Source: Candidatus Magasanikiibacteriota bacterium (GTDB lineage: Bacteria > Patescibacteriota > Patescibacteriia > Magasanikbacterales > GWA2-37-8). Taken from it: a DNA stretch of 64,000 nt. The notes beneath the pieces were generated by a model. That model ran no database searches. It was not told the origin of the DNA and saw only the letters and a program-made list of their open reading frames with translations. The stretch is from NCBI GenBank assembly GCA_009694865.1, contig SICD01000001.1, positions 403 through 64,402 on the forward strand, in the 5' to 3' direction. This document shows, piece by piece, positions 4,888 to 32,716 of the stretch. Each line of letters begins with the position of its first letter. Positions within the stretch are counted from its first letter, which is position 1. Position numbers and translations under genes: made by a program.

Positions 4888-4920
4888 ACTACTATAGTAT
4901 ATACTATTTTGGCTTGACTC

Positions 4921-4957
4921 ACAACAAAAAAGTTTAAAAAGAACAGCGCCCCGCGGA
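4921..4957 (-). terminator. Intrinsic terminator of the high-GC cassette gene 5045..5608
   Basis: Hairpin gcgccccgcggatgcggagcgc at 4936-4957, preceded on the plus strand by aaaaagaaca (a T-run on the minus strand). Confidence 0.5.
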
Positions 4958-5044
4958 TGCGGAGCGCTTTGTTGCCTTGTTGCGAAGGCGAGCCCGAAGG
5001 GACCGAGCGACCTCGATAGAACCGAGCCACCCAGCACCCCAGTG

Positions 5045-17463: not shown

Positions 17464-17598
17464 ATCAGCGCGCCCTTCACCGCCTGCCCCCTCCACACGG
17501 GTCCAACCCCCGTGGAGCGAAAACACAGATCGCTCGTGCTCTCGCTTTATTGGTACAAACAGTTGTATTAATAAAGCGCGAGCGATCTGAAATTTAAA

Positions 17599-17632
17599 AC
17601 ATCCTGACGCTATCCGTCGGGATGTTTTTTTG
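17599..17632 (+). terminator. Rho-independent terminator of cassette A
   Basis: acatcctgacg-ctatc-cgtcgggatgt followed by ttttttt. Two further GC-rich hairpins lie upstream (17491-17517 and 17528-17587). Confidence 0.55.
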
Positions 17633-17679: not shown

Positions 17680-19401
17680 CTACAGTTCATCTTCAATAAC
17701 ATCTATCTCCTCTTCAATTTTCTTTTCAATACCACGAATCTGCGCCCGCAGATCGCGTAGAACCTTTTCTTCGGCCGCGCTTAATTTTCGCTCGGCCATG
17801 GCCTGTTCCAAATGTTTAATATCCTGCCGCATTTGTTCGGCTAAATCACCTAATGATTCGTGCACCGTGTTGCGTATCAGTACAGCCTCTTTACGCAACA
17901 ACCGGTTGGTATAAAAACCCCGATACGAGAAAAAAAGAATAATGGCAAAAAGCACAAGAATAACCGCCACCAAAATTATAATAATATAGTTATAGGCGCT
18001 TATGGATTCCAAGAGGGGCACCGGGTGAACGGTAAATGTTTCTACGGCGCTTCGCTCGCTCACATTGCCGCTGGTGTCAATGGCCTGGACCCAAAACGCA
18101 TAGGTACCCCGACGTAACTTTTTAGGCCACGCCAGAGAAAAATATCCGGCATTGTTGCTTTTGGTCTCGGCCATGGAAATTATTCCTTTGCTGTCTTTAA
18201 CCGATACCACGGCGGTGGCAAAGGGGTACGAACTACCCTGGACTTGAAATAAGTCGCCCTCGTCTAAATCGGCCGGAAAATTTGAAACCAGGGGCATGGC
18301 CAGCGGATTAATAACCACTTCTGCATTAGCTTCGCGAAAATTACCGGCATTATCTACGGCCCGCACGAGCACCGCGTATTTCCCTGGCTCACGAGGCGGC
18401 AATACAAAAGGGTTAGATTCCACCACCTCGGCCGGAACTACCTTTAAATAGGGGGAATCGCCAATTTTAACCTCATAATACGCGATACCAGAAATTTTAT
18501 CGGGTGTATTAAACAAAACAACCGGCCGCTGATCGGGAGTCACGTCGCCATGAGGGAATGTGACCGCAAACGGTTCAGGCGGTTCGTTGTCAATTTGCAG
18601 ACGGTAGACAACTACTTTTCCCCAGCCAAGGGCAGTGCGCGCCTGCAGTTGAAAATACCAAACACCATTGGCCAAATCAGGGATAGTTTTAGAGCGAACC
18701 GAAACTGGCACGGCCTGGCTAGGCAGAGCGCCTACCTCCCGACTTATTCCCCACCGAGTCGCGCTCGTGAGGGGCGGCAGGGTCCAGTTAAAGACAGCGG
18801 TTGACGTGGCATACCAGCCTGTCGAATCTGGATGGGTAAGAGAACTAATACGCGGGAGAGTTGGGTCGTCGCTCAACGATTTTGACAAGCTGCTAGACCC
18901 CTGAATAACATACTGCGCTGATTCGGTTTTGGCTTGTACATTGGTGCCGTTACCATCGTTCGCTAGTACCAGGGCGGAAACAAACGACACCTGCGCCACC
19001 CCTGAAGAAAGCGCGCGGAAGCGAATAGTGGCCAAAGTTCCTCCCGACCCGCTAAACCCCGGATTTTTAATAATGCCCTCTAGGCCAATGGTGCTCTGGT
19101 TACGGATAATAACAGGCTCGCGTACCCAAAAATCAATAATTGAATTACTAGTGGAAACAGACAGGGCTTCGAGAGTGGTTGCGGAATAACGCAAAATCGC
19201 CTGCACCGCGTTTATGGGGTCATCGCTCCCGGCCTCAAGGGTAACGGTAAAAATATCGCCAGCCGAAATAGGGGCGCGCGGACCAACAAAAAACAAGCGA
19301 GCCGGTTTATCCGTTGCCGTTGCACTAGAGGCAAGTGCGGCTCCGATAACGGATGAGAGCATCGCCACCCCGATAATTATTTTTTTAAATAAATCCCCCA
19401 T
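17680..19401 (-). CDS. Surface protein (573 aa) with a signal peptide, an N-terminal cohesin-like domain, FN3/Ig-like repeats, and a C-terminal TM anchor plus cytoplasmic coiled-coil tail
   Basis: The cohesin-like pattern is ARLFFVGPRAPISAGDIFTVTLEAGSDDPINAVQAILRYSATTLEAL...GGTLATIRFRALSSGVAQVSF. The FN3-like pattern YYEV...VRAVDNAGN occurs three times. The TM segment is YIIIILVAVILVLFAIILFF, followed by a charged helical tail. Confidence 0.65.
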   Translation of the reverse strand: MGDLFKKIIIGVAMLSSVIGAALASSATATDKPARLFFVGPRAPISAGDIFTVTLEAGSDDPINAVQAILRYSATTLEALSVSTSNSIIDFWVREPVIIRNQSTIGLEGIIKNPGFSGSGGTLATIRFRALSSGVAQVSFVSALVLANDGNGTNVQAKTESAQYVIQGSSSLSKSLSDDPTLPRISSLTHPDSTGWYATSTAVFNWTLPPLTSATRWGISREVGALPSQAVPVSVRSKTIPDLANGVWYFQLQARTALGWGKVVVYRLQIDNEPPEPFAVTFPHGDVTPDQRPVVLFNTPDKISGIAYYEVKIGDSPYLKVVPAEVVESNPFVLPPREPGKYAVLVRAVDNAGNFREANAEVVINPLAMPLVSNFPADLDEGDLFQVQGSSYPFATAVVSVKDSKGIISMAETKSNNAGYFSLAWPKKLRRGTYAFWVQAIDTSGNVSERSAVETFTVHPVPLLESISAYNYIIIILVAVILVLFAIILFFSYRGFYTNRLLRKEAVLIRNTVHESLGDLAEQMRQDIKHLEQAMAERKLSAAEEKVLRDLRAQIRGIEKKIEEEIDVIEDEL

Positions 19402-19407
19402 GTTATT

Positions 19408-20328
19408 TTATTTTTTTATGCGTCGGCGTATACCAAAAACGAACAGAAGCGCAACGCCACTTACTACTAGTATACTCCAAATTCGTACAGAATAAAATGG
19501 TGATAAATTAACTGACGGAGGCAATGTCACCATAGCGCGATTCCCAGCACTGTCGACTGCCCGAACCGCCACAAAATGACGCGCCAATTGATCGCGCAAT
19601 ATATAAGGGCTGGTGGCGCGCTTCCAGGCGCCCGGCTTCGCATCACTCTCTCGAGTTTCCGCCACTTCATAATACTCAACTCCTGACTGCGTATCTCGCC
19701 CCATAAATACTACGGTTTTGACCCCCCCTGCCACCATAGGGTGCTCGGCGCGTTCTGCTACCAGAGAGGGCGGCGTGGTATCAGAAACGCGAAGCAAAGC
19801 CGCGGGGGCCACTCCTTGAGATTCAATAATATTAACGGTTAACGGTACAACCGTTACTGGCAACACAGTTGCTTTACCATCATGAGAGAGGAGGCTCACT
19901 TTAGACAAGGAAAATGTTACCGAGCCGGGCTCTCTAGCTTCAAAATCCACGCTAAACATTTTACCCGGTTCTGGTTCTTTGGCATACGGACTAAACACAC
20001 CTTGAAAACCGCCAGGAATAATTCCGGAAAAAACCACTCCCCGTTTTTGAATAACAGGGGCAGTAACCCACCAAGTAATAATTGAATTAGCGCCCGAAGT
20101 AGCGCGCGGAACTACCCGATCCGTATCGGCTTCCAGCGTTCCCTCTAAGGCATTAATCACCACCTCGTCCGGCTTAAGTTCGGCCGACACGGTAAAGGTA
20201 CTGCCCACCGGAACCGACCGTGCGGGACCAATTAAATTAATAGTGGCGGCCTTAGCAACACCGCCCATTGCTAAAGCAATAAATCCAAGGGCAATACTAA
20301 AACCCAAACGCAAAATAAAAAATTTCAT
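19408..20328 (-). CDS. Surface protein (306 aa) with a signal peptide, a cohesin-like domain, an FN3-like domain and a C-terminal TM anchor
   Basis: ATINLIGPARSVPVGSTFTVSAELKPDEVVINALEGTLEAD...SIITWWVTAPV... aligns by eye with the N-domain of the 573-aa protein. C-terminal anchor IWSILVVSGVALLFVFGIRRRIKK. Confidence 0.6.
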   Translation of the reverse strand: MKFFILRLGFSIALGFIALAMGGVAKAATINLIGPARSVPVGSTFTVSAELKPDEVVINALEGTLEADTDRVVPRATSGANSIITWWVTAPVIQKRGVVFSGIIPGGFQGVFSPYAKEPEPGKMFSVDFEAREPGSVTFSLSKVSLLSHDGKATVLPVTVVPLTVNIIESQGVAPAALLRVSDTTPPSLVAERAEHPMVAGGVKTVVFMGRDTQSGVEYYEVAETRESDAKPGAWKRATSPYILRDQLARHFVAVRAVDSAGNRAMVTLPPSVNLSPFYSVRIWSILVVSGVALLFVFGIRRRIKK

Positions 20329-20338
20329 AATGCCTCAA

Positions 20339-21253
20339 TTAGCCCGTCCAATAAAACGCCATAATACTAAAATCTTTTAAATCAATCTGTCCGTCATTAT
20401 TTAAATCAAACTGCGCCGGTGCCCCGGGTTTTGCATACCAAAAAGCAATCATGGAAAAATCTACCAAATTAACACGCTGGTCTGCGTTAAAATCTCCGAG
20501 TAGTGTCTGCGTACCCGCCGGGTTAAAGGTCGTTGTATCCCCGAGCAATACCGTTTCGGGGCGACTGGCCGGGGTTTCCTTATCCCCCACTATAACCGAG
20601 GCCTCTAACGTATAGGTTCCGCGCAAGAACGGTTTTGTGTTAATAACCACCCGAAATAAACCGACGTTGTTAGAGCGCGTGGTAATAAGAGCCGAGGAAG
20701 GACCCTTTAAACGAATTGTCACCCGCGCGCCCGGCGAGGAGAGGCCGCTCACAATTAAATTATCGCCTTGCTTTACCGCGCTCTGGTCTGCCCACATCAC
20801 GGGCGTGGCAACAATACCGCTAACCGTGAGGGTGGTACGCTCGGCAACTAACAGTGGAATCAAAAAATTGCTGGAACGAAAACCGTTGGTATCAATGCTA
20901 TTAATAGTAAAGACGTGGTTGCCAATTGTAACCGCCGGTAAAACAATGGTAAATGCACCCTGCGCTGTGGTTGTGGCGCTGGTGGTGAGCACGCCATCAG
21001 TGAGAATTGTTATACGAGCTCCTGGGAACGACGTGCCGGCAAAACTCACGCTGGTAGGTGTGTTAAGTTCAGAAAAAGCCCCGCCCCCGCCAGATGTTTG
21101 CCCTGGAGAATTGGACTGTGTCCCCGGCAACACTACCGCGGTCACCGTTATGGTAGTTTCAGCCCCCTGTACCCTCTCCCCCGCCACCAACAAAAAAACA
21201 GCCAGCATTATTGCCAGGCCGACTGAATATAATTTTGAAACAGTGGTAATCAT
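20339..21253 (-). CDS. Secreted protein (304 aa) with two Ig-like domains and a C-terminal type-I-like dockerin module
   Basis: The C-terminus carries duplicated calcium-loop segments: GDFNADQRVNLVDFSMIAFWY and FDLNNDGQIDLKDFSIMAFYW (DxNxDxxVNxxD pattern, two copies). Confidence 0.7.
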   Translation of the reverse strand: MITTVSKLYSVGLAIMLAVFLLVAGERVQGAETTITVTAVVLPGTQSNSPGQTSGGGGAFSELNTPTSVSFAGTSFPGARITILTDGVLTTSATTTAQGAFTIVLPAVTIGNHVFTINSIDTNGFRSSNFLIPLLVAERTTLTVSGIVATPVMWADQSAVKQGDNLIVSGLSSPGARVTIRLKGPSSALITTRSNNVGLFRVVINTKPFLRGTYTLEASVIVGDKETPASRPETVLLGDTTTFNPAGTQTLLGDFNADQRVNLVDFSMIAFWYAKPGAPAQFDLNNDGQIDLKDFSIMAFYWTG

Positions 21254-21261
21254 GGGCCTTA

Positions 21262-22278
21262 CTAGTGGCGGGAATCACGCGCGCGAGCAATAATCCAGGC
21301 ATTATAACGCCGAATACCCACGCGGCCGCCGATCAATATCAAAGCTATAATTAGAACACAAAGAGTTAGCAGCTGCCACGGCACCAGTAGCACGCGCTGC
21401 GTAGCCATCATTTGCTCGACCGATTCCACCCCCCACTTTAAGTCGAGCTTGGCGGTGTACAACCCAAAAGCAAAATGATTCCATTGGTGTTTTACGGTTT
21501 GCCAATAACCAGCGGGCCGATTTAAATTGCCAGCAAATTCTTGAGGCCAAACGACCTCAAAACGCCGAATGCTCGCCGGTAAAACATTATTTTCTGCCGG
21601 GTTGGCGGAAAGCTCGGCCACCTTCTGGCCAAGCATAGAAGTAATTGTTATGGTTCCGGCAGGCTTTAGCCGATCACCCCCGCCGTTGCGCAAACGAAAC
21701 ACAAACGTCACTGGCACGCTATCAAACCAGCGCTGGTTATTAAGCGAAGTAAACTCAACTAGCCCAGCTTCCTCTTTGACATCGCCCGAAACACGAAGCA
21801 AAACCAGGGTGCCTATTTTGGCTCCCACGGCTAATTGCCCGCCTTGGCCCTGGCTTGGCGTTGTGCTCCAAAAAATTGCGGCAAAGTGGCCACCCGGTTC
21901 TGCCGACGCCGGAATGGTTATGGTAAAAGGAACTTTACGCTGCTCTCCCGGAGCCAGGGTTATCTCGCCAGACGTGTTCACCCATGTTGACAAGCCTTCG
22001 GTTCCAGCCACAAAATTGGGTACTCCACCTTCGCCTTGGGCCTCAAAATTTTCGGCCGAAGAATAAAAACGTTTGGACTCCTTTTGGTCATTCATGAGGA
22101 GGAGTTCGGAACTAATAACACTGCCCGGGTCCCCCGTTAACTCCAGTCGCGCCGGAGAAATGGTAAGGGCCTTCGCGCTCTTTGACCCTAAAAAAAAGCT
22201 CATCGCTATCAAAAAAAATATCGCGGAGCTCTTTGTTGCCGAACGGAAAAAAATATGAAACGTAAGAAACTTTTTCAT
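21262..22278 (-). CDS. C-terminally membrane-anchored surface protein (338 aa) with an N-terminal beta-rich domain resembling pilus-chaperone / DUF916-like domains
   Basis: Signal peptide, then ALTISPARLELTGDPGSVISSELLLMNDQKESKRFY. C-terminal TM LLTLCVLIIALILIGG followed by a basic tail RVGIRRYNAWIIARARDSRH. Confidence 0.55.
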   Translation of the reverse strand: MKKFLTFHIFFRSATKSSAIFFLIAMSFFLGSKSAKALTISPARLELTGDPGSVISSELLLMNDQKESKRFYSSAENFEAQGEGGVPNFVAGTEGLSTWVNTSGEITLAPGEQRKVPFTITIPASAEPGGHFAAIFWSTTPSQGQGGQLAVGAKIGTLVLLRVSGDVKEEAGLVEFTSLNNQRWFDSVPVTFVFRLRNGGGDRLKPAGTITITSMLGQKVAELSANPAENNVLPASIRRFEVVWPQEFAGNLNRPAGYWQTVKHQWNHFAFGLYTAKLDLKWGVESVEQMMATQRVLLVPWQLLTLCVLIIALILIGGRVGIRRYNAWIIARARDSRH

Positions 22279-22315
22279 ACGTTACCAACCTCCCATTTAA
22301 ACATATAAAAAAGGA

Positions 22316-23368
22316 CTAGAAGTTTGCGGTGGCAACGTAGGTTAACGTGGCTGTATAGCTACCCGCTTCGGTGTTAGCGCCGATATTAGCCAGATACCGC
22401 ACCGAGTAGGTGGTGTTGGCCGAAGCGCCCGCCGCCGATGCGACGGTACTTGCCGTGTTGCCCGTGGCGGCATAAGCAAACCCAGCGGCCGCATAGGGCG
22501 CGCTTACCGCACCGCTGCCGCCTGCCGCGTTACTACGCAAACCAAATTGTTCAGTGCCGGCGCTGGACGCGGTATTAACGTTACCAATGGCGCTAACCGT
22601 ATTAGCGCCGCTTGTTAGCGTGGCGCCTTTAACAGTAACGGTGTACCCGCTGTTTCCGTTGGTACTGGCAATTAAGGTATGCGCTTCGGCTTCCACGTCC
22701 GAGCCAGCACCAACGCCAGCATAGCGAGCCGCGGCCGAACTTAAAGTCCCAAAATCAATGGTGTTGGCCGAGATACTAAAAGACAAAGAGGGCGCGACCG
22801 TTGCCGAAATCGCCACTTGGTCGTTGGTGACAATCTGCACGCTCATGATTCCCGCATCACCAAACGTACCGCTAATAGTAATAGTATATGGCCCAGCGAC
22901 CGAGGGGTTAACGGCATTGGAGCTATCCAAAATCATAATGAGCTTATCGCTGGCCGCTACGGCCGCCGCGCCCACGCCATCCGTTGGCGCCGTTAAAGTT
23001 AATATACGATTTTGGACTCCGGAAAAAACCGCCCCCCAAGCAGTGGCGGAGGGGTTAGCGGCCAAGGTCTCGGTGTTCTCGGCCCCGGTATTGGCACCAT
23101 GGGTAAACGTCACAGTATTAATTGCTTTGCTCGACAAATTAAAATCTGAGGGAAATGTGACTATTATGGTATCAGTATTTTCATTGGCACCGGTTGGTGA
23201 AGTAAAAGTGAGGATGTGGCTCGAAGCGGTATTTACCTTAAGCGAGGACATGGTATCGCTTAAACCCATAAGCGCCGCCGCCTCCGCCCCGGAGTATGGC
23301 CACCCTACCCCAGCCATAATAACACTTATAACGAGAGTGGCGGAAACAATTATTTTGACTGTTCTCAT
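22316..23368 (-). CDS. Secreted protein (350 aa) whose C-terminal roughly 150-aa beta-domain is paralogous to the C-terminus of the next gene
   Basis: SLSFSISANTIDFGTLSSAAARYAGVGAGSDVEAEAHTLIASTNGNSGYTVTVKG...TEQFGLR...GSYTATLTYVATANF matches FLSFSISTSTAGFGLLYPHAARYATASGAGAATETEAHTLAIGSDGVLPYVITVQG...TNQFGLR...GEYQAALTYVVTATY. Confidence 0.6.
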   Translation of the reverse strand: MRTVKIIVSATLVISVIMAGVGWPYSGAEAAALMGLSDTMSSLKVNTASSHILTFTSPTGANENTDTIIVTFPSDFNLSSKAINTVTFTHGANTGAENTETLAANPSATAWGAVFSGVQNRILTLTAPTDGVGAAAVAASDKLIMILDSSNAVNPSVAGPYTITISGTFGDAGIMSVQIVTNDQVAISATVAPSLSFSISANTIDFGTLSSAAARYAGVGAGSDVEAEAHTLIASTNGNSGYTVTVKGATLTSGANTVSAIGNVNTASSAGTEQFGLRSNAAGGSGAVSAPYAAAGFAYAATGNTASTVASAAGASANTTYSVRYLANIGANTEAGSYTATLTYVATANF

Positions 23369-23466
23369 ATATTTAAAATTACTCCTTTTTTAGGATTTCT
23401 TTAGAGCCTATAGTATAACACAGTTTGCTCAAGTCTCGAACAAAGTTATACACATAATTAATTCGT

Positions 23467-25689
23467 CTAATAGGTAGCAGTAACCACATAGGTGAGGGCG
23501 GCTTGATATTCGCCCGTTGGTTTAGTGGGGGCAACATTGGCCACATACCGAACGGAAACAGTCGTTGGCGCTCCGACGAGCGTACTTCCCCCTACAATCA
23601 TACTCGTGCTCGTGCCGGTAGCGCCATACGCAAACCCAGCTCCCATATAAGGAGTAGTGATAATGTTTGAACCGTTGGAGATGACAATCCGTAGGCCAAA
23701 CTGGTTCGTACCAGGCATTGATGCTGTATTGACGGGGCCAATCGCATTAATAACTCCTATCACGGAACCAAGCGGATCGCCCTGTACCGTTATAACATAG
23801 GGCAAAACTCCGTCTGATCCAATGGCCAAGGTATGGGCTTCGGTTTCGGTAGCGGCTCCCGCGCCACTAGCCGTAGCATAACGCGCGGCGTGGGGATATA
23901 ACAAACCAAAACCGGCCGTGCTGGTTGAAATTGAAAAAGACAAAAATGTCGGCGGAGGTGGATTTGTCGCCGGAGTTATCCACCTCACACTCACCAGCGC
24001 AAAATCCCAATCCCGCGTCACCGGCGCCACCGCCGTAGAAGCCGACGTGCGCAAACGCAGAGCCGCCACATTGTTCACGGTATCAATAAAATTCTGCGGG
24101 TTAATTTGGAAGATGCCATCCGTAAACGTGAACGTGGTTAAAGCGTTGGTACCACCCACCGCGCTCCACCCCCCGGCAATGGTTTGGCCGGCAAATTGAC
24201 CGGAATAATCTTTAAGGCCAAGCTGAACGGTGTTGGCCGTGACATTGCTTCTAAAGCGAGCCGCGAAACGAATGCCGGTGACGGCCGCGCCAGCGGGAAC
24301 GGTAATCGGAACGGTCACATTGGCGCTCGCGCTGTAATTGGTTCCCCAGGTACCAGCCCCATCGGTTGGGTAGGGCGTGGTAGCGCAGGGGGCCGTGTTG
24401 TTTAAACAGGTTGTTTGGGTCCACGTGTTACCAACGGTGGCCGTGGTGAGAGCGGCTAAATCTGCTGTCGCCGCAGATGTACCGGACCCTAGTTGACCAA
24501 AAGATATTTCCGATTGGTTCGTATCGGTATTCACCGAGCCAACGGTAATATATATTTGATCGGTGCCCAGTGTTTGCGTGCCGCCCACGGTGCTAAAAAT
24601 AAGGATTCTCGTTTCTCCACTGGAGATATAATTAGCGAGCGTGACATTGGATTTGGCAAAAAAATTACTTTGGAGGGTATTAATCGCGGAAGCGACAATG
24701 GGAGCGGCGTTTAAATTTTCCCAACTGCTACTATTGAAATTCCAAATAGCCACATTGTACGTGAGGGCAAGGTTTGAAACAAAGCCGCCGTTGTACGCCA
24801 CGAGGATAGTGTTCGCGCCAGTGTAGGTTTGAATGTTTTTAAAAGAATAGTAAAAACTTAAAGGGTTGGCTACGGTGTTGGTAATGGTTTGGCGAGTAGC
24901 ATTGTTAGTAAACACCGAAAGGTAATCTCCATTTACGGCGCCGGCAAACGGGGCGATGGGGTTGTAGGAGTCGGGGTAATACACCGGGTCAATGGCCGCC
25001 TCAAGCTGTACTCTGTCAAGGTTGAATTGTACCAGCGAATTAACGGTGGAAAAAAATCTAATCCGCACGGTACTGTTCGAGACGAAGTTGGTGAGCGGGG
25101 TGGCGACTTTAACCCCGGGGTTGGTGCCCGTGTAAAAATATCCGTTAAAAATTTCAAAGGTGCGGCTGGTGTCAGCCGTTTCGGTAAAAGCGGTGGCTTT
25201 GGGGTTGTTCAGCGTGCGCCATCCCCCGCCCGTACACTGTGCGTCGGCGACATTGTCGACTCCGGTGGACGAAGCCCAATCACAAATTTGAATAAAGAAA
25301 TTGCGGGCCGTGGTAACATTCGCGGTCTCGGTTGTGAGGAGCAGTTTGTTAGCGCCATTGAGGCTGACGCCGCCGAGATCAACCTGGGCATTGAAGCCGG
25401 TGGGCGTGCCAACAAACGACCAGAACAGGTTGTCGGTGGCGAGGGTACCACGATATGACCCGACATTAGTGGCGGAATTGGCAGCAGGGGTGCCGAGGAC
25501 AAGGTTGCCGGCCGAGGGGGAGAAGAGGGAGGTGGCGGCCTGAACCGGGGTGACCAAAGAATTGTCCGGCCCCACATTTAAACCAATACCCACTAATAGC
25601 GGCACCGATGCGTTAGAAAAAACGATGACCGCGGTGAGCGCCCATACGGCCAGTACAATAAATTTTTTTCGTATCGCGCGCATATGCAA
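23467..25689 (-). CDS. Large secreted protein (740 aa) with a signal peptide, a long N-terminal region and the shared C-terminal beta-domain
   Basis: See the previous entry. N-terminal signal MHMRAIRKKFIVLAVWALTAVIVFSNA. Confidence 0.6.
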   Translation of the reverse strand: MHMRAIRKKFIVLAVWALTAVIVFSNASVPLLVGIGLNVGPDNSLVTPVQAATSLFSPSAGNLVLGTPAANSATNVGSYRGTLATDNLFWSFVGTPTGFNAQVDLGGVSLNGANKLLLTTETANVTTARNFFIQICDWASSTGVDNVADAQCTGGGWRTLNNPKATAFTETADTSRTFEIFNGYFYTGTNPGVKVATPLTNFVSNSTVRIRFFSTVNSLVQFNLDRVQLEAAIDPVYYPDSYNPIAPFAGAVNGDYLSVFTNNATRQTITNTVANPLSFYYSFKNIQTYTGANTILVAYNGGFVSNLALTYNVAIWNFNSSSWENLNAAPIVASAINTLQSNFFAKSNVTLANYISSGETRILIFSTVGGTQTLGTDQIYITVGSVNTDTNQSEISFGQLGSGTSAATADLAALTTATVGNTWTQTTCLNNTAPCATTPYPTDGAGTWGTNYSASANVTVPITVPAGAAVTGIRFAARFRSNVTANTVQLGLKDYSGQFAGQTIAGGWSAVGGTNALTTFTFTDGIFQINPQNFIDTVNNVAALRLRTSASTAVAPVTRDWDFALVSVRWITPATNPPPPTFLSFSISTSTAGFGLLYPHAARYATASGAGAATETEAHTLAIGSDGVLPYVITVQGDPLGSVIGVINAIGPVNTASMPGTNQFGLRIVISNGSNIITTPYMGAGFAYGATGTSTSMIVGGSTLVGAPTTVSVRYVANVAPTKPTGEYQAALTYVVTATY

Positions 25690-25692
25690 GTA

Positions 25693-27192
25693 CTATGGCG
25701 ATAGTGTTGTCGTAACTACTGTTATTATGGGCGATGAACTCGCCATAATTTCGCTAGTAGTGGTAGTAAACATATCACTCGTGCTCGTGGCCATAACCGA
25801 AAGTATTGTGGTATCTGGCGAAGACGAAACAACGATGGTAGGAACGGCGACCAGCGGCAAAGCCACTAAAGCCGCTACTGTGGTGGTGGCGTTAAGTGCG
25901 GCCACAACCTGCGAGTCCGGCAACTCATACTCTTCAGTGTCTCCGTTAAAAATAATCCATTGCCCGCCGCGCCAGTGCACTTTATAACTGCCCGATCCAA
26001 TCCAATCGGTTGGTTCGCTGTCAATAATAATAGTTTGTGAATTATACTCGCCGTCAGCGCGCCAGGCGGCAATCACCTCTGGCTCCGCTCGGCCCGAGAG
26101 CCAAAAAATAGTGTTGTCTTTCACCATTGGGGGGAGCGGCAAAAGCTCGGAGGTTTCAATTTTGTACGCGGGAGCCGTGGTGTTGCCCAACTCATCGGCT
26201 GGCGCGTACCACAAACTATACCCATCCGGGGTATGCGCCAAAGCAGTAGTAATACCCGGAGACACCACCACAATGCTAATTTCTTCGGCTTTGAGAAGCG
26301 GCTCTACAGCCTCCGGCACACTATCGGTTGGCGCGGCAATAAGCATCATCCCATCCACATACACCGGCGGCTCTGGCATAGCCCCCGGTACAAACTGGAG
26401 CATTATTTGCACCCGCCCCGGATCAATTGGTTCTGTAATGGGAATTTCAAAATCGCTCTCGGGGTGATCAATGTTAACGGTCGCGAGCGATTGCCAAGCC
26501 ACCCCATCGAGCGAGTATTGTATTAAGAACATCCCGGGTAAACTTTCGGGTACGAGTAGCGCAGTGGAGGCTTCCGCGGTTGAACTAACATTATCACTGG
26601 TGGATGTAACCACTAGGGGTAGTTCAAAAACACTACCAGTAGTAGAATTTGTCTCGGGGATAGTTTCCTCATCCAACGCCATACTCAATTCAAGAGTGGC
26701 GGGTTCCTCGGTCGTGGTGGTTGCGGCGGATGGCGTAATTTCATTAACCGTACTCACTAAAGATTCTTCAGAAACCAACGACCAGGCTAAATGCAAACGC
26801 AAACGCGAAACAAGTATTTGCTCCTCTGCCACACCCCGAAAATCCCCGCAATACAATTGCTGTACTCCTTCCGTGAACACAGCCGCGGTAGTAGTGGAAA
26901 ACAAATCTCGGGGTTCAGTAGTATCTAAAATATTTTGAGCGGCGTGCTGTGGATTTTGAACACTGCCCAAACAGGTGGTAGGGAAAAATACTATTTCTTG
27001 AGCTTGAGAAATAGAAAAAATAACCATTGTTAGCGCAATGCCAAAAAACACGGTGGTGGTTACCAAACCAAACGTCCGTATTTTTACATACGCCCACAGA
27101 CGCTCTGCGATAGTTGCGGACGTTGATAGTGCCCTGTGTCTACGACGCCACACCACAGCGCGAGTGCGTGCCTTCAATTTTTTCGCAGCCAT
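25693..27192 (-). CDS. Type II (N-terminally anchored) membrane protein, 499 aa, with a Thr/Ser-rich extracellular domain. It is the first gene of the surface locus.
   Basis: Basic cytoplasmic N-terminus MAAKKLKARTRAVVWRRRHR, a single TM LVTTTVFFGIALTMVIFSI, then a large ectodomain with T-rich stretches. Confidence 0.55.
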   Translation of the reverse strand: MAAKKLKARTRAVVWRRRHRALSTSATIAERLWAYVKIRTFGLVTTTVFFGIALTMVIFSISQAQEIVFFPTTCLGSVQNPQHAAQNILDTTEPRDLFSTTTAAVFTEGVQQLYCGDFRGVAEEQILVSRLRLHLAWSLVSEESLVSTVNEITPSAATTTTEEPATLELSMALDEETIPETNSTTGSVFELPLVVTSTSDNVSSTAEASTALLVPESLPGMFLIQYSLDGVAWQSLATVNIDHPESDFEIPITEPIDPGRVQIMLQFVPGAMPEPPVYVDGMMLIAAPTDSVPEAVEPLLKAEEISIVVVSPGITTALAHTPDGYSLWYAPADELGNTTAPAYKIETSELLPLPPMVKDNTIFWLSGRAEPEVIAAWRADGEYNSQTIIIDSEPTDWIGSGSYKVHWRGGQWIIFNGDTEEYELPDSQVVAALNATTTVAALVALPLVAVPTIVVSSSPDTTILSVMATSTSDMFTTTTSEIMASSSPIITVVTTTLSP

Positions 27193-27218: not shown

Positions 27219-28865
27219 TTATATCAAAGGCGTCCCCGTCATCTCTTTGGGCTGTGTAAGCCCCATAAGTTTTAAAACCGTCGGCGCGACATCCGCTAAA
27301 AATCCCACCGGCGGAAGCAAACTCAGATCCCCTTCCGGCGCGTCGCCACCTGGGCCGGCCTGACCGCGAAAATCAGCGCCGATGACGAGCAGGGGAACGG
27401 GATTGGTAGAGTGCTCTTTATCCATTTCACCAGTTTGCAAATTAATCACTTCTTCGGCATTGCCATGATCCGCTGTCATAATAACCACACCGCCAACCGC
27501 CAGTGTATGGCCTACAATATCGCCCAAACATTTATCAATGGTCTCACACGCGGCAATGGTGGCTTTGCGATCGCCGGTGTGGCCAACCATATCGGCATTG
27601 GCATAATTAATAACCACCAAATCAAACTTGCCGCTATCGATGGCTTTAATAGTTTTTTTTGTTACTTCGGACGCTGACATAGCTGGTACTTCGGCGTAAC
27701 TGGCCACATGCGGCGACGACACCAAAGCGCGCTCCTCGCCCGGAAAAGCTTCTTCAATTGTGCCATTCAAAAAAAATGTTACATGCGCGTATTTTTCCGT
27801 TTCCGCCGCGTGAAATTGCTTAAGACCGGCCAAACTAACGGCTTCAGCCAAACAATTACGCGCCACAATGGGCGCATAGGCCACTACCACCGGCAAATCT
27901 TTTTCATACTCCATCATGGTGACAAAAAATAACTTTTTTATGTCGCTGCGTTTAAATTTATCAAACCCGGGGAGTACAAAGGCTTTAGTGAGTTCGCGCG
28001 CGCGGTCGGGACGAAAATTAGCAAAAATAATAGCATCCCCATCAGTCACAGTCGCCACTGGCTTACCTGCCTCGCTCGCCTCGCTGGAGCTATGGCGAAG
28101 CGGGCCGGAGCCTTTGGCGGAGGCTGAATCACCATCCATAATCACGGTCGGCACAAATTCTTCATCATAATTTTTTTTCGCGTAGCTGGCTTTAATCGCC
28201 TCGGCGGGGCTAGTCGCGCTGCGTTCCGCTTTGCCTTCCGCCATTGCTTTGTAAGCCGCTTCAACTCGTTCCCAGCGGTTATCCCTATCCATGGCATAAA
28301 ACCGCCCCGAGAGCGAGGCGATCGCTCCAACTTTCAACTTTTTCAGCTTCGCTTCCAATTCTTTTACAAAACTTTCCCCGGCGCTATAAATACAGTCACG
28401 CCCATCTAAGATAACGTGGACAAAAACCTCTTTGCCTAAACCTTGCTTTTTACACAAATCCAAAAGTGCATAAAGGTGTTCATTGCTAGCGTGCACATTA
28501 CCGGAACTTAACATGGCAATAATATGGAGTTTGCTTTTATTCTTTTCCACGTGGGCAATCGCATCTAGAAAAGCCTTGTTCTTAAAAAATTCACCGCTCG
28601 ATATTTCTTGGTTAATGCGAGGACAGGATTGATAATAAACTCTACCCGCGCCAATATTAAGGTGCCCCACTTCCGAATTACCAATTTCACCAAATAAAAG
28701 ACCCACTTCGTTCCCCGAAGCGTGCAAGGTCATCGCCGGATACTCTTTAATATACGATTTAAAATTGGGCAACTTAGCCTGGGCAATAGCATTGCCATCG
28801 CTATCTGGCGCTACACCCCAACCGTCGCAGATGACAAGGGTAACTGGTTTGTAAGATTTACTCAT
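27219..28865 (-). CDS. gpmI: 2,3-bisphosphoglycerate-independent phosphoglycerate mutase (copy 1, 548 aa)
   Basis: iPGM motifs GNSEVGHLNIGAGRV and TADHGNAEE, with a metalloenzyme core. Confidence 0.85.
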   Translation of the reverse strand: MSKSYKPVTLVICDGWGVAPDSDGNAIAQAKLPNFKSYIKEYPAMTLHASGNEVGLLFGEIGNSEVGHLNIGAGRVYYQSCPRINQEISSGEFFKNKAFLDAIAHVEKNKSKLHIIAMLSSGNVHASNEHLYALLDLCKKQGLGKEVFVHVILDGRDCIYSAGESFVKELEAKLKKLKVGAIASLSGRFYAMDRDNRWERVEAAYKAMAEGKAERSATSPAEAIKASYAKKNYDEEFVPTVIMDGDSASAKGSGPLRHSSSEASEAGKPVATVTDGDAIIFANFRPDRARELTKAFVLPGFDKFKRSDIKKLFFVTMMEYEKDLPVVVAYAPIVARNCLAEAVSLAGLKQFHAAETEKYAHVTFFLNGTIEEAFPGEERALVSSPHVASYAEVPAMSASEVTKKTIKAIDSGKFDLVVINYANADMVGHTGDRKATIAACETIDKCLGDIVGHTLAVGGVVIMTADHGNAEEVINLQTGEMDKEHSTNPVPLLVIGADFRGQAGPGGDAPEGDLSLLPPVGFLADVAPTVLKLMGLTQPKEMTGTPLI

Positions 28866-29070: not shown

Positions 29071-30657
29071 TTACAGCAAGCTTCGTCCTGTCATTTCCTT
29101 CGGTTTCTTAATTCCCATTATTTTTAAAATCGTGGGAGACACGTCCGCCAGTTTGCCTTTTTTAAGGTTTCGAGATTTTAGCTTAAATTGTTTATGTACG
29201 GACGCAGGCGCTATAAACACAAATGGCACGGGATTTACCGAATGCTCCGTATCAACTTCGTCGGTCTTGAGGTTTACCATTTCTTCGGCATTACCATGAT
29301 CGGCGGTTATAACACATTGCCCTCCAGCCTTGAGGACACTCTGTGCCACGCGGTTAAGCTGTTTGTCAAGAATCGCAATCGCCTTTTCGGCGGCCGCAAT
29401 ATTCCCCGTGTGCCCCACCATGTCGGCATTGGCAAAATTAACCGCGATAAAATCATATTCCCGCGCTTCAATTGCTTTCACGGCGTAGGTGGCGATTTTA
29501 TCCGCTTCCATCGCCGGGTCAGTTTCAAAATCTTTCACGCGATCCGAAGCAATTTTTACCCACCGCTCATCGCCAAAATGCTGTTGGTAGCCGCCATTAA
29601 AAAAATAAGTGACGTGCGCGAACTTTTCTGATTCAGCGAGATATAATTGCCGGCGCGGACACAAAGTCTGTACCAAAGTATTAGGAATGTCACGACTCGG
29701 AAACGCTGTGAGTACACGCGGAAAATCCGGACCAAAATCCGCCATCGCCACAAACCGAGTATTTTTCGGCACAATTTTTCGATCAAACGTTCCGCCATTT
29801 TCCTTCTCAAACTGCGGATGCACAAACGCCTTCGTAATCTGCCGCGCCCGGTCACTGCGCAAATTAAAAAAGAAAATCGCGTCGTTACTTTTTATCGTCG
29901 CCACTGGTTTATTATTTTCAACAATCACCATGGGCGTAATAAACTCATCACTTTCACCAGAATTATACGCTTGCGTTAGTGCCTCTTCCGCGCTATTTGC
30001 CTGCTTACCTTTGCCTTCAACCATCGCCCGGTACGCCTTTTGTGTCCGGTGCCAAATTTTATTACGATCCATCCCGTATAACCGCCCCATCACCGTCGCA
30101 ATTTTCTCCGTGCCGTGAAAATGATTTTGTAAATGTTTAAGATGATGCGGCGCGTCGTGTTGACCAGAATCCCGCCCATCGGTAAATAAATGCAAATACA
30201 CTTTTTTAATTCCCTCCTGATGAATTAAACCCAAAAGCGCGAACAGGTGCTCCGGACAGGAATGCGCGCTGTTGTGATTCGAGAGCAATCCCATCAAATG
30301 CACCGCCGTTTTGTATTTTTTTACATGGTGCAGTGCTTCGTGAAACGCATTATTCTTAAAAAACGTACCGTCATTAATCGCATCGGTAATATACAGCGTA
30401 TCTTGTTTTACAACTCGCCCCGCCCCAATATTCAAATGCCCGGCTTCACTATTCCCCTCCTGCCCGCGCGGCAATCCGACGGCGACACCGCTCGCCTCAA
30501 GAAGAGTGTGGGGATATTTTTTCCACCAACCAAAAAAATTCGGCGCCGTTTTGGGCGTAATAGCGTTGCCCTTTTGTTTTGGGTCAGCCATGCCAAAGCC
30601 GTCGAGGATAATGAGGATGGTGATTGGTGATTTTGTAGGCATAATATTTCGTAACAA
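29071..30657 (-). CDS. gpmI: 2,3-bisphosphoglycerate-independent phosphoglycerate mutase (copy 2, a divergent paralog of 528 aa)
   Basis: GNSEAGHLNIGAGRV, ITADHGNAEE. Collinear with copy 1 but clearly diverged. Confidence 0.8.
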   Translation of the reverse strand: MLRNIMPTKSPITILIILDGFGMADPKQKGNAITPKTAPNFFGWWKKYPHTLLEASGVAVGLPRGQEGNSEAGHLNIGAGRVVKQDTLYITDAINDGTFFKNNAFHEALHHVKKYKTAVHLMGLLSNHNSAHSCPEHLFALLGLIHQEGIKKVYLHLFTDGRDSGQHDAPHHLKHLQNHFHGTEKIATVMGRLYGMDRNKIWHRTQKAYRAMVEGKGKQANSAEEALTQAYNSGESDEFITPMVIVENNKPVATIKSNDAIFFFNLRSDRARQITKAFVHPQFEKENGGTFDRKIVPKNTRFVAMADFGPDFPRVLTAFPSRDIPNTLVQTLCPRRQLYLAESEKFAHVTYFFNGGYQQHFGDERWVKIASDRVKDFETDPAMEADKIATYAVKAIEAREYDFIAVNFANADMVGHTGNIAAAEKAIAILDKQLNRVAQSVLKAGGQCVITADHGNAEEMVNLKTDEVDTEHSVNPVPFVFIAPASVHKQFKLKSRNLKKGKLADVSPTILKIMGIKKPKEMTGRSLL

Positions 30658-31295: not shown

Positions 31296-32543
31296 TTACA
31301 ATCCTAATTCCGCTTCAATCTCCATCAACCGATTATACTTTTCCACCCGCTCCGAACGCGACATAGAACCAGTTTTAATAAATTCCGCGTTCACCGCCAC
31401 TGCCAAATCCGCAATAAACGTATCGGCGGTCTCCCCGCTCCGGTGCGACACGGCAATTTGATAACCGCTGGTCTGCGCCAAACGAACCGCTTCAATCGTA
31501 TCCGTTAGTGTCCCAATTTGGTTCAGCTTGATGAGAATGGCATTCCCCACATGGCTCTCAATTCCCTTATTCAACCGTTCCACATTCGTCACAAACAAAT
31601 CATCGCCCACCAGCAAAACTTTTTTACCAAGTTCTTGTGTGAGTATTTGCCAATTTTTCCAATCATCTTCCGCTAGCCCATCTTCAATGGAAATCAAAGG
31701 ATATTTTTTAACCCAAGCCGCCATTTGAACAATCATTTTTTCCGCCCGCCAGGCTTGTTTTTTACCTACAAAATAATAATTACCGTGACGATAAAATTCT
31801 GAAGCGGCCACGTCGAGCCCTAAAAAGACATGCTTGCCTGGTGTCCAACCAGCCAATTTTATCGCTTCCATAATCAGTTGCAATCCACGCTCGTTATTCA
31901 AAAGTTCCGGCGCAAACCCGCCCTCGTCACCAACGGACGTAAGGTAGCCTTTTTGACTTAATAAATTCGCCAAAGAATGAAAAATTTGCGAACCCATGCG
32001 CACGCGCTCGCGAAACAATTTATGCCGCGGCATAATTAAAAACTCCTGAATCGTTAGGCCGTTATCCGCGTGCCGCCCGCCGTTTAAAATATTGATCATC
32101 GGCACGGGCAAACGCCATTCTTTATATGGCAATTCAAACGCTTTGCGAATGTAGCGATACAATGATAACTTCGCTTCGGCCGCAAAAGCGCGAGTGGCCG
32201 CGAGCGACACCGCGAGCGTGGCATTGGCCCCCAAACGCGATTTATTTTCCGTCCCATCTAATCTATCTAAAAGTTTATCCAATTCCAAAATACTCGCAAC
32301 CGTCCGATCACTAAAAAATTTAGCAATCGTCGTATTAACATTATTCACGGCTTTCAAAACGCCTTTGCCGCCATAGCGCTTGCCCCCATCACGTAATTCT
32401 AAATCCTCGTGCTCACCCGTGGACGCGCCCGAGGGTACTTTAGCGATACCAACAAAACCAGTGTCGAGCGTAAGCTTGGCCTCCACAGTTGGGTTGCCGC
32501 GCGAATCGAGAATTTCACGAGCGGTAATTTGTTTAATTTTCAT
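31296..32543 (-). CDS. eno: Enolase
   Basis: The start MKIKQITAREILDSRGNPTVEAKL is the canonical enolase N-terminus. The likely ATG is at 32541-32543 rather than the ORF-track 32603. Confidence 0.9.
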   Translation of the reverse strand: MKIKQITAREILDSRGNPTVEAKLTLDTGFVGIAKVPSGASTGEHEDLELRDGGKRYGGKGVLKAVNNVNTTIAKFFSDRTVASILELDKLLDRLDGTENKSRLGANATLAVSLAATRAFAAEAKLSLYRYIRKAFELPYKEWRLPVPMINILNGGRHADNGLTIQEFLIMPRHKLFRERVRMGSQIFHSLANLLSQKGYLTSVGDEGGFAPELLNNERGLQLIMEAIKLAGWTPGKHVFLGLDVAASEFYRHGNYYFVGKKQAWRAEKMIVQMAAWVKKYPLISIEDGLAEDDWKNWQILTQELGKKVLLVGDDLFVTNVERLNKGIESHVGNAILIKLNQIGTLTDTIEAVRLAQTSGYQIAVSHRSGETADTFIADLAVAVNAEFIKTGSMSRSERVEKYNRLMEIEAELGL

Positions 32544-32716
32544 ATGATTTAACGAAATCATGCTGCGCAACCGATTTGACGAAATCGTGTCGCGTAACGT
32601 CATCTGAGACGCGACGAAGCGCGGCCTAATACTTTTAAATAACCTACTTTATATTACCATAACTTGATAGAATAAAAAAGAGGCTCCGCGTTTGCGAAGC
32701 CTCCCTTAAAACAGGT

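Follow-up and report, generated by a model that had tools for sequence, protein, structure and literature searches.

The Candidate Phyla Radiation (CPR) makes up a large part of bacterial diversity, and its bacteria for the most part seem to live attached to other cells, by means that are largely unknown outside a few cultured Saccharibacteria. Here we consider a stretch of 64,000 nucleotides (the window) of contig SICD01000001.1 in a metagenome-assembled genome (GCA_009694865.1) of Candidatus Magasanikbacteria, which is a lineage of the Parcubacteria group in the Patescibacteria group. At 17680-27192 the window carries seven consecutive open reading frames (ORFs) on the minus strand, here named g7 to g1 in the direction of reading, all of which encode proteins of exported or membrane type. 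An earlier note, made from the letters of the DNA, had described this block and had taken it for a self-contained cohesin-dockerin system, with two cohesin proteins (g1 and g2) held in the membrane and a dockerin protein (g3), perhaps together with two large secreted paralogs, docked onto them. What, then, does a cohesin-dockerin pair do among these genes? The presence of pilin domains in g5 and g6, and of a chaperone-like protein, g4, in the same operon, argues against a self-contained system. We propose instead that the locus is a Pam-type donor-strand pilus operon, and that the cohesin-dockerin pair is most likely one module of it, the anchor at the base of the filament. We are highly confident of the identity of the components; the full mechanism we regard as probable, with considerable room for doubt.

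Pilin domains and a chaperone-like protein in the block

It was not until 2026 that the Pam pilus was described, in a single Saccharimonadia species, Candidatus Mycosynbacter amalyticus, as a donor-strand-exchange pilus seen by cryo-electron microscopy (Troman et al., bioRxiv 2026, doi 10.64898/2026.03.03.709456). According to that report, its pilins have two domains, and the linker strand between them inserts into the open C-terminal immunoglobulin (Ig)-like domain of the neighbouring subunit. The other parts are two PapD-like chaperones anchored by a transmembrane (TM) helix, PamC and PamD; a strandless tip subunit, PamT; and PamR, a proposed terminator and anchor that has an N-terminal strand, two fibronectin type III (FnIII) domains and a C-terminal TM helix of its own. 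The words cohesin, dockerin and WxL are absent from the preprint.

Two proteins of our block carry the C-terminal domain of such pilins. The NCBIfam model CPR_Pam_pilin_C (NF058581, 'Pam pilus system pilin subunit') is passed by g5 (82 bits, cutoff 55, E=4.5e-23), and g6 falls slightly below the same cutoff (50.6 bits, E=2.2e-13). The domain common to the two comprises 158 aa at 47% identity (E=1e-31), which bears out the earlier description of the large secreted proteins as paralogs, and seven pilins of related loci, from the major and small classes and including one truncated member of the large class, score 66-77 bits with this model. A Pfam scan found no dockerin in either g5 or g6; being without a dockerin and having a Pam pilin domain, they are poor candidates for the docking onto cohesins that had been envisaged for them. 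Because no donor-strand motif precedes its C-terminal domain, g6 would be strand-accepting only, and is a candidate tip adhesin. The NCBIfam equivalog model for PamT was not passed at this locus (41.7 bits, cutoff 240). A sequence search of the PDB with g5 gave noise alone, with no solved pilin structure matched in the copy searched.

The protein encoded next to g5, g4, was examined by structure prediction. Its AlphaFold2 model (pLDDT 86.6) consists of two beta-sandwich domains and a TM helix, and the best Foldseek matches were to the WxLIP of E. faecium (9i1y and 9i25, 1e-10), including WxLIP bound to a long WxL protein, followed by the chaperone-usher chaperones CfaA, CsuC, Caf1M, PapD, DraB and EcpB, and by RbmA. 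WxLIP, composed of DUF916, DUF3324 and a TM segment, belongs with a small and a large WxL protein to the WxL clusters of Firmicutes (Hassan et al. 2023, PMC10599100). At the level of sequence g4 matched none of the Pam-named NCBIfam models and scored 15.8 bits with Pfam WxLIP_PGBD, for which the cutoff is 27.3. More than 817 homologs were found at 43-52% identity; those whose source names identify a taxon are all from CPR, and the remaining names are generic ('bacterium', 'marine sediment metagenome'). The predicted structure fits a membrane-anchored chaperone-like protein comparable to PamC/PamD and to WxLIP. Given that g5 and g6 have no dockerin and do have the Pam pilin domain, and that a chaperone-like protein stands beside them, the locus is best read as a Pam-type pilus operon.

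In a study of Paceibacterales attached to methanogens (PMC10936435), the metatranscriptome lists proteins of the InterPro 'peptidoglycan-binding domain (PGBD)' among those highly expressed. Since the Pfam name of DUF916 is WxLIP_PGBD, these could be orthologs of g4, in which case the operon would be strongly expressed during host association.

The dockerin protein and the membrane-anchored cohesins

The duplicated dockerin that the earlier note saw at the end of the 304-aa protein g3 is well supported. Pfam Dockerin_1 matches above its cutoff of 22.9 (26.8 bits, E=6e-6), the closest PDB match by sequence is the dockerin 2y3n_B (E=9.5e-4), and the module has the layout of two tandem segments of ~22 residues, each with a Ca2+ loop and a helix, both loops being canonical (D254-N256-D258-N262-D265 and D283-N285-D287-D291-D294). 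The Ig domains in front of it match Pfam Big_6 (8e-10). Dockerin_1 is matched by 33 of 38 sampled g3 orthologs, the duplicated module stands at the C-terminus of all 74 full-length orthologs (with the ending WTG-COOH in 72), and no Ca2+-ligand position is less than 90% conserved across the family.

In the case of g2, which had no match in the Pfam scan, the evidence for a cohesin is structural. The AlphaFold2 model (pLDDT 93.2, from a 61-sequence alignment) retrieved cohesins without exception in the top 40 Foldseek matches, the best of them the tandem of cohesin and FN3 domain of C. perfringens GH84C (2w1n), and the single cohesins 2vo8 and 2xdh superpose on it with TM-scores of 0.77-0.79 at a root-mean-square deviation of about 3 A (for 2vo8, 0.79 and 3.1 A). 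The family profiles of g1 and g2 matched cohesins exclusively in the PDB at E<=0.1, among them 5aoz_A (2e-5) and 5m2o_A (4.5e-5) for g2; the sole non-cohesin listed for the g2 profile is ColH (4jgu_A), at E=0.6 and on the second domain. The cohesin fold of g2 is thus confirmed for the predicted structure.

A cohesin is supported in g1 as well. Its own match to Pfam Cohesin lies slightly below the cutoff (22.7 bits against 24.1, E=1.2e-4), and a sequence search of the PDB with g1 gave noise alone; it is a paralog of g2, however, with 30% identity over the cohesin (E=4e-10) and a similarity that extends to a second Ig-like domain. The Pfam model is matched by 21 of 34 g1 orthologs (best 1.5e-8) and by 8 of 37 g2 orthologs, with matches in the two families reaching about 2e-8. 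Paralogy to g2, a near-threshold match and these ortholog matches together argue for a cohesin in g1. Both cohesins named in the earlier note therefore hold up, and the search of Pfam profiles that it had suggested as a check finds the dockerin of g3 and, beneath the curated cutoff, the cohesin of g1, but not g2 itself.

The two cohesin proteins differ beyond this domain. The Ig-like domains of g1 are of the OmpL47 type (296-358, NCBIfam) and the Big_13 type (393-458, Pfam, 1.2e-8). Both proteins had been said to end in a single TM anchor, which is right for g2, but g1 continues past its TM segment (residues 473-491) in a charged cytoplasmic tail of 82 residues, and this tail is conserved. As a membrane-anchored cohesin, g2 would be the minimal partner of g3, and g1 would be a second, accessory one.

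The family of g2 is large, with 7765 cluster representatives at E<=1e-3 in an exhaustive search of representatives; word-indexed homolog searches returned just 5 proteins with the single query and 7 with a 37-sequence profile. Among the 150 best-ranking representatives, 22 or more are g2-g1 fusions of 530-970 aa, which may be true fusions or gene calls that read through a stop codon. They have a consistent three-TM topology, in which the signal peptide of g1 would become the second TM helix. In the window, g2 and g1 lie in one frame, parted at 19401-19410 by TAA AAT AAC before the ATG of g1, with no recognisable ribosome-binding site (RBS).

A strand motif shared by g3 and the pilins

A short motif, V-x-[VI]-[ST]-A-x-V, occupies the mature N-terminus of g3, directly after the signal peptide, where it has the core TITVTAVV and is followed by a poly-Gly/Pro tether. 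The pilins of major size (about 350-390 aa, adjoining g4) have the related sequence D-D-x-V-x-[VI]-[ST]-A-x-V directly before their C-terminal domain, which in g5 reads DQVAISATV. We counted the pattern [VIL]x[VI][STN]Ax[VI], scanning residues 16-75 of g3 orthologs and, for pilins, the 18 residues that adjoin the C-terminal domain on its N-terminal side. It is present in 65 of 75 g3 N-termini (87%), as against 0/67 for g1, 1/72 for g2, 1/83 for g4, 3/314 for other ORFs and 0.7% of random 60-aa windows. Within the pilin-domain proteins, which fall into three classes, it is largely a property of the major-size class (59/77), with 2/19 in the small, Cys-rich class and 2/34 in the large class to which g6 belongs.

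In contrast to the pilins, g3 has no acceptor domain. Given the polarity proposed for Pam pili, a protein that has the strand but lacks the domain can close a chain at the proximal end only. PapH is the proximal terminator of P pili. We propose that g3 is likewise a proximal pilus cap and, by virtue of its dockerin, an adaptor.

Gene order across species and a natural swap of dockerin for TM helix

A search with the g4 family, taking one genome per GTDB species, gave 80 loci from 80 GTDB species (cited by L numbers below), whose record titles include Paceibacteria, Gracilibacteria, Nomura-, Falkow-, Kaiser- and Staskawiczbacteria. Nearly all of these sampled loci carry a related operon. The recurrent order is zero to two large pilin-domain proteins, one to three pilins of ~350-390 aa, then g4, g3, g2 and g1, and among loci whose contig extends far enough, the majority have pilins upstream of g4. 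For the remaining genes 73 loci are informative, having 3.2 kb or more of sequence past g4: g3, g2 and g1 are all present in 64, g3 and g2 alone in 5, and none of the three in 4. Conserved synteny, which the earlier note had named as a check, is therefore found, with the order g4-g3-g2-g1 recurring across CPR species. Moreover, the dockerin-bearing g3 and g2 co-occur strictly, in 69 of 69 informative loci, which supports the predicted binding between dockerin and cohesin.

Three loci (L006, L067 and L053) are without cohesins and dockerin, and in each of them the gene right after g4 keeps a signal peptide and a strand (TVNINATV, DVGVSAKV and QVNITATV, respectively). In two of the three, L006 and L067, this gene ends in a C-terminal TM helix. 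With a TM helix in place of the dockerin, a dockerin together with a TM-anchored cohesin on the one hand and a built-in TM helix on the other appear interchangeable, as would be expected if the cohesin-dockerin pair anchors the pilus base to the membrane; the swap supports that reading. In having a strand and a TM anchor, the variant proteins of L006 and L067 mirror PamR, the proposed terminator of the M. amalyticus pilus.

Some proteins at the g3 position have a Cys-rich insert, CGD..(I)..GE.CDG..L.G..C...GF..G.L.C...C, that replaces or precedes the poly-Gly tether after the donor strand (L001, L012, L024, L030, L048, L052, L056, L073, L081, L006 and L053). Its sequence suggests a disulfide-stabilised spacer in some lineages. 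In L003, two genes for signal peptidase I (Peptidase_S26; 2324-2863 and 4090-4638) lie just upstream of the pilus block.

A proposed model and its alternatives

The components suggest the following course of assembly, in which all parts would be exported by Sec and, as we propose for a Pam-type pilus, no dedicated trans-envelope secretion machine would be needed. Held in the membrane by its C-terminal helix, g4 would bind newly exported pilins as chaperones of the PapD/FimC type and WxLIP do. The fibre would start with g6, which has an acceptor domain and no donor strand, as the distal adhesin. Polymerisation would be that of g5, the linker strand QVAISATV of each subunit filling the open C-terminal domain of the preceding one. 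Since g3 has a strand but no acceptor domain, its strand, on a flexible Gly-rich tether, would fill the groove of the last g5 and so end the fibre, and its dockerin would bind, with Ca2+, the cohesin of g2, also or alternatively that of g1, giving a non-covalent tie between the filament base and the cytoplasmic membrane. A surface or host-attachment role for such a structure is plausible.

Several observations weigh against this model. The likeness to the imaged pilins comes from a single C-terminal domain model, and a filament in this Parcubacteria-group lineage is predicted from the genes. Both of the contacts on which the base would depend, that of the g3 strand with the g5 groove and that of the dockerin with a cohesin, are likewise predictions. 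A permutation test found no match between the g3 strand and the pilin linker of the same locus beyond the family motif (observed 17.25, against 17.07 +/- 0.39; equalled or exceeded in 1565 of 5000 shuffles). The top fold match of g4, WxLIP, is from a system without known filaments. The matches of the g3 profile to the three variants that lack a dockerin are weak (E 3e-9 to 9e-5, with three targets searched). Finally, the model leaves unexplained why there are two cohesin proteins, g1 and g2, and what role g7 has.

Other readings of the same genes have therefore to be weighed. In one, which is close to that of the earlier note, the membrane cohesins g1 and g2 would display g3 as the adhesin itself, the neighbouring genes being co-regulated or their products docking, with no link to a filament. 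It has in its favour that the dockerin and the cohesins are real and always co-occur, and that g3 has two Ig domains, as many adhesins do. We consider it unlikely, however, given that g5 and g6 have no dockerin, that a free-standing adhesin has no need of the pilin linker motif found at the N-terminus of g3 (87% against a background of about 1%), that cohesin-free loci keep a strand-bearing protein at the g3 position which in two of three cases ends in a TM helix, and that the order with pilins and a chaperone-like gene is nearly invariant. It would also be possible to see in the locus a complex of the WxL type that forms no polymer, with g5 and g6 as the small and large WxL proteins held by a WxLIP-like g4, and with the cohesin-dockerin pair as a second scaffold layer. 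The best structural matches of g4, one of them in complex with a long WxL protein, would agree with this, and a small and a large protein with a common C-terminal domain beside a TM-anchored protein of two Ig domains do mirror the WxL clusters. On the other hand, neither g5 nor g6 has a Pfam WxL match at E<=1, g5 passes the Pam pilin domain model, and PamA and PamB were imaged as filaments; in addition, a linker strand conserved in the major-size class only, with a copy on g3, fits the assembly of a chain with defined ends better than it fits a 1:1 complex. We think this reading improbable to about the same degree as the display of g3.

A further proposal, and to us a very improbable one, would make g1 and g2 an assembly platform that substitutes for an usher and recruits the dockerin-tagged g3 as initiator or length regulator, the finished pilus being released or held in some other way. 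The Pam pili of M. amalyticus do detach easily (Troman et al., bioRxiv 2026), and both the frequent fusion of g2 and g1 into one polytopic protein, as for a fixed membrane platform, and the conserved cytoplasmic tail of g1 would suit such a function. A donor strand without an acceptor domain, however, fits the proximal end only under the polarity proposed for Pam pili, and the exchange of a TM helix for the dockerin points to anchoring. We retain the pilus with a cohesin-dockerin base as the preferred interpretation.

Were this interpretation to be extended to most CPR of the Parcubacteria group, their pilus base would be joined to the membrane by cohesin and dockerin, in place of a covalent link or a TM helix built into the terminator. 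A single dockerin whose two halves are nearly identical would then face two different cohesins, g2 as the minimal anchor and g1 with additional Ig spacers and, in the cytoplasm, a conserved coiled-coil tail, so that pili might be handed between anchors, or the pull on a host-bound filament might be reported to the cytoplasm through g1. We regard this extension as speculative and rather unlikely. If true, the cohesin-dockerin joint would provide a pilus base that is mechanically very strong and yet modular. The model offers a testable answer to how a filament can be fastened without an outer membrane or a sortase, namely by a strand-donating adaptor whose dockerin is plugged into membrane cohesins. 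If confirmed, the model would make this the first such pair with an assigned part in fastening a pilus, and one large class of the long-catalogued "non-cellulosomal" cohesins and dockerins would gain a defined function. We found no report of such a module in the literature on cohesin or dockerin with CPR or with pilus anchoring.

Relation to known systems

The proposed pilus resembles the Pam pilus in being CPR-restricted, in its predicted Sec-exported pilins, with an N-terminal domain, a putative linker donor strand and a C-terminal domain of the Pam type, in a TM-anchored chaperone-like protein of PapD-like fold, in the lack of a trans-envelope machine, and in a putative proximal terminator with the donor strand at its N-terminus. 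It differs in that terminator and anchor are split, g3 ending in a dockerin and the TM segments residing on the separate cohesins g1 and g2, whereas PamR has a TM helix of its own; in having one chaperone-like gene rather than two (PamC and PamD); and in its occurrence in the Parcubacteria group rather than in Saccharimonadia or Microgenomatia. A single protein of the PamR type, which would combine the strand with two FnIII domains and a TM helix of its own, is not present in the window, although the combination of strand and TM helix does occur in L006 and L067. Of the Pam models, that of the C-terminal domain alone was passed, and the PamT equivalog failed. With pilin domain and chaperone fold present, and PamR and the equivalog match absent, we regard the locus as a variant of the Pam system and not as the same system.

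A WxL cluster in the strict sense was rejected, as there is no WxL domain on g5 or g6: their C-termini (LTYVATANF and LTYVVTATY) contain no Trp and the WxL motif is absent. WxL systems, for their part, have no known polymerisation and no cohesin-dockerin module. The likeness in the logic of the gene sets, together with the fold match of g4, nevertheless raises the possibility that Pam-type and WxL systems are related.

In chaperone-usher pili (Pap/Fim, CFA/I, Csu, Caf1) the tip adhesin has no donor strand, and the terminator, such as PapH, has a strand but no usable groove. CPR cells have no outer membrane. The locus shares with these pili the chaperone fold of g4, and would share the donor-strand logic, a strandless tip adhesin and a terminator without a groove. 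It differs from them in the absence of an usher and of an outer membrane, in the membrane anchoring of the chaperone-like g4, in a base that would be held by cohesin and dockerin, and in a candidate pilin donor strand that is an internal linker and not an N-terminal extension. A chaperone-usher pilus was rejected because no usher-like protein is found among the seven with Pfam or NCBIfam. A sortase-assembled pilus was rejected as well, there being no LPXTG at the C-termini of g5 and g6 and no sortase among the seven genes.

With regard to the cohesin-dockerin pair, the best structural matches of g2 are to non-cellulosomal pairs, in the glycoside-hydrolase complexes of C. perfringens (2w1n, 2vo8, 2jh2) and in Archaeoglobus fulgidus (2xdh), which as here are used outside cellulose degradation. 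Unlike those, which join enzymes or toxins, the present pair belongs to a pilus operon, its cohesins are TM-anchored and its dockerin protein has no catalytic domain. The domain families (PF00963 and PF00404) and the duplicated Ca2+-loop dockerin are those of the cellulosome, but there is no multi-cohesin scaffoldin, no carbohydrate-active enzyme (CAZyme) or carbohydrate-binding module (CBM) in the operon and the flanks scanned, and no SLH or sortase anchoring. With one cohesin per protein, no catalytic domain on g3 and no CAZyme or CBM matches, a cellulosome was rejected. We also considered SEML1_0315, an essential 'dockerin-domain' protein of Southlakia epibionticum, as an ortholog of g3, and rejected it: it is a protein of 927 aa, annotated with three Ig/PapD-like domains, whose stand-alone gene has unrelated surroundings, between a hydrolase and a tRNA.

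Layout of the block, neighbouring genes and minor observations

The coordinates of the seven genes and of associated features are collected in Table 1. Topologies were read throughout from hydrophobic segments alone; all seven proteins have an N-terminal hydrophobic segment, and g1, g2 and g4 have an additional TM segment towards the C-terminus. All seven ORFs lie where the earlier note had placed them. In NCBI records EXS55_00100 is g4 and EXS55_00090 is g2 (100% identity each).

Table 1. Genes of the block and associated features, by nucleotide position in the window
Feature	Position	Strand	Description
g7	25693..27192	-	499 aa, first gene of the block; Arg-rich cytoplasmic N-terminus, TM 43-61, second hydrophobic stretch about 437-455
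g6	23467..25689	-	740 aa; signal peptide, large N-terminal region, C-terminal Pam-type pilin domain 583-740 (nt 23470-23943)
Promoter-like site	23412..23439	-	TCGAGA-16 nt-TATACT, TG before the -10 (extended -10), in the g6-g5 gap; consensus scan, pattern match alone
g5	22316..23368	-	350 aa, candidate major pilin; signal peptide, N-terminal domain, linker strand, C-terminal acceptor domain 195-350 (nt 22319-22786)
g5 putative linker/donor strand	22787..22822	-	D183-S194, DQVAISATVAPS; linker motif
g4	21262..22278	-	338 aa; signal peptide, beta-sandwich domains 43-163 and 171-298, C-terminal TM 301-337
g3	20339..21253	-	304 aa; signal peptide, N-terminal strand motif, Gly-rich linker, two Ig domains (Big_6), C-terminal dockerin 252-304 (nt 20342-20500)
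g3 strand motif	21125..21157	-	residues 33-43, TTITVTAVVLP
g2	19408..20328	-	306 aa; signal peptide, cohesin 28-168 (nt 19825-20247), Ig/FN3-like domain 188-269, TM 277-305
g1	17680..19401	-	573 aa; signal peptide, cohesin about 30-165 (nt 18907-19314), Ig-like domains, TM (nt 17929-17985), charged tail
Hairpin	17596..17628		14-bp stem, 52 nt past the g1 stop codon; terminator-like block end, pattern alone

The intergenic gaps, from g7 to g1, are 3, 98, 37, 8, 10 and 6 nt. Five of them agree with the range of 3-40 nt given earlier, which does not cover the 98 nt between g6 and g5; within this longer gap a strong RBS, AGGAG, lies upstream of the start codon of g5, and the promoter-like site of Table 1 is found there too.

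The first gene, g7, had no match in Pfam or NCBIfam. The extracellular part of its product is large and Ser/Thr-rich. Relatives were found upstream and on the same strand in 6 loci with phmmer and in 25 with an iterative search, a number possibly inflated by low-complexity sequence. The iterative search also matched the N-terminal parts of proteins of 2064-2583 aa (L064:2566-8760 and L050:958-8706), one of which has a Pam C-terminal domain; the likeness might reflect kinship to the N-terminal regions of tip proteins, or drift on Thr/Ser-rich sequence. Many related loci encode a third class of Pam-domain protein, of about 320-360 aa, with a Cys-rich N-terminal domain and a threefold repeat around 'TNAH(x)E' (for example L003:7286-8296, L006:7756-8829, L018:7807-8793 and L026:7784-8755). 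This class, of which the window has no copy, is without a donor-strand motif and could be a lectin-like tip subunit.

The genes flanking the block are of the housekeeping type (ValRS, TyrRS, ArgRS, two phosphoglycerate-mutase-like genes and enolase). The earlier remark that polysaccharide degradation leaves no sign here stands for what was scanned, as neither the seven proteins of the locus nor ten flanking proteins gave any CAZyme or CBM match. Directly upstream of the operon, 27219-28865 and 29071-30657 are tandem paralogs that by eye resemble cofactor-independent phosphoglycerate mutase, and an enolase (Pfam) follows beyond them at 31296-32603; duplication of a glycolytic gene is unusual for a reduced genome. 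Farther away, the minus-strand gene at 3250-5037 encodes a histidine kinase whose N-terminal part is a 7TM sensor region (HisKA_7TM, HisKA and HATPase_c in Pfam), and a minus-strand ORF of 702 aa at 223-2331, for which weak matches to Phasin_2 and DUF7217 were the only ones, may encode a long coiled-coil protein.

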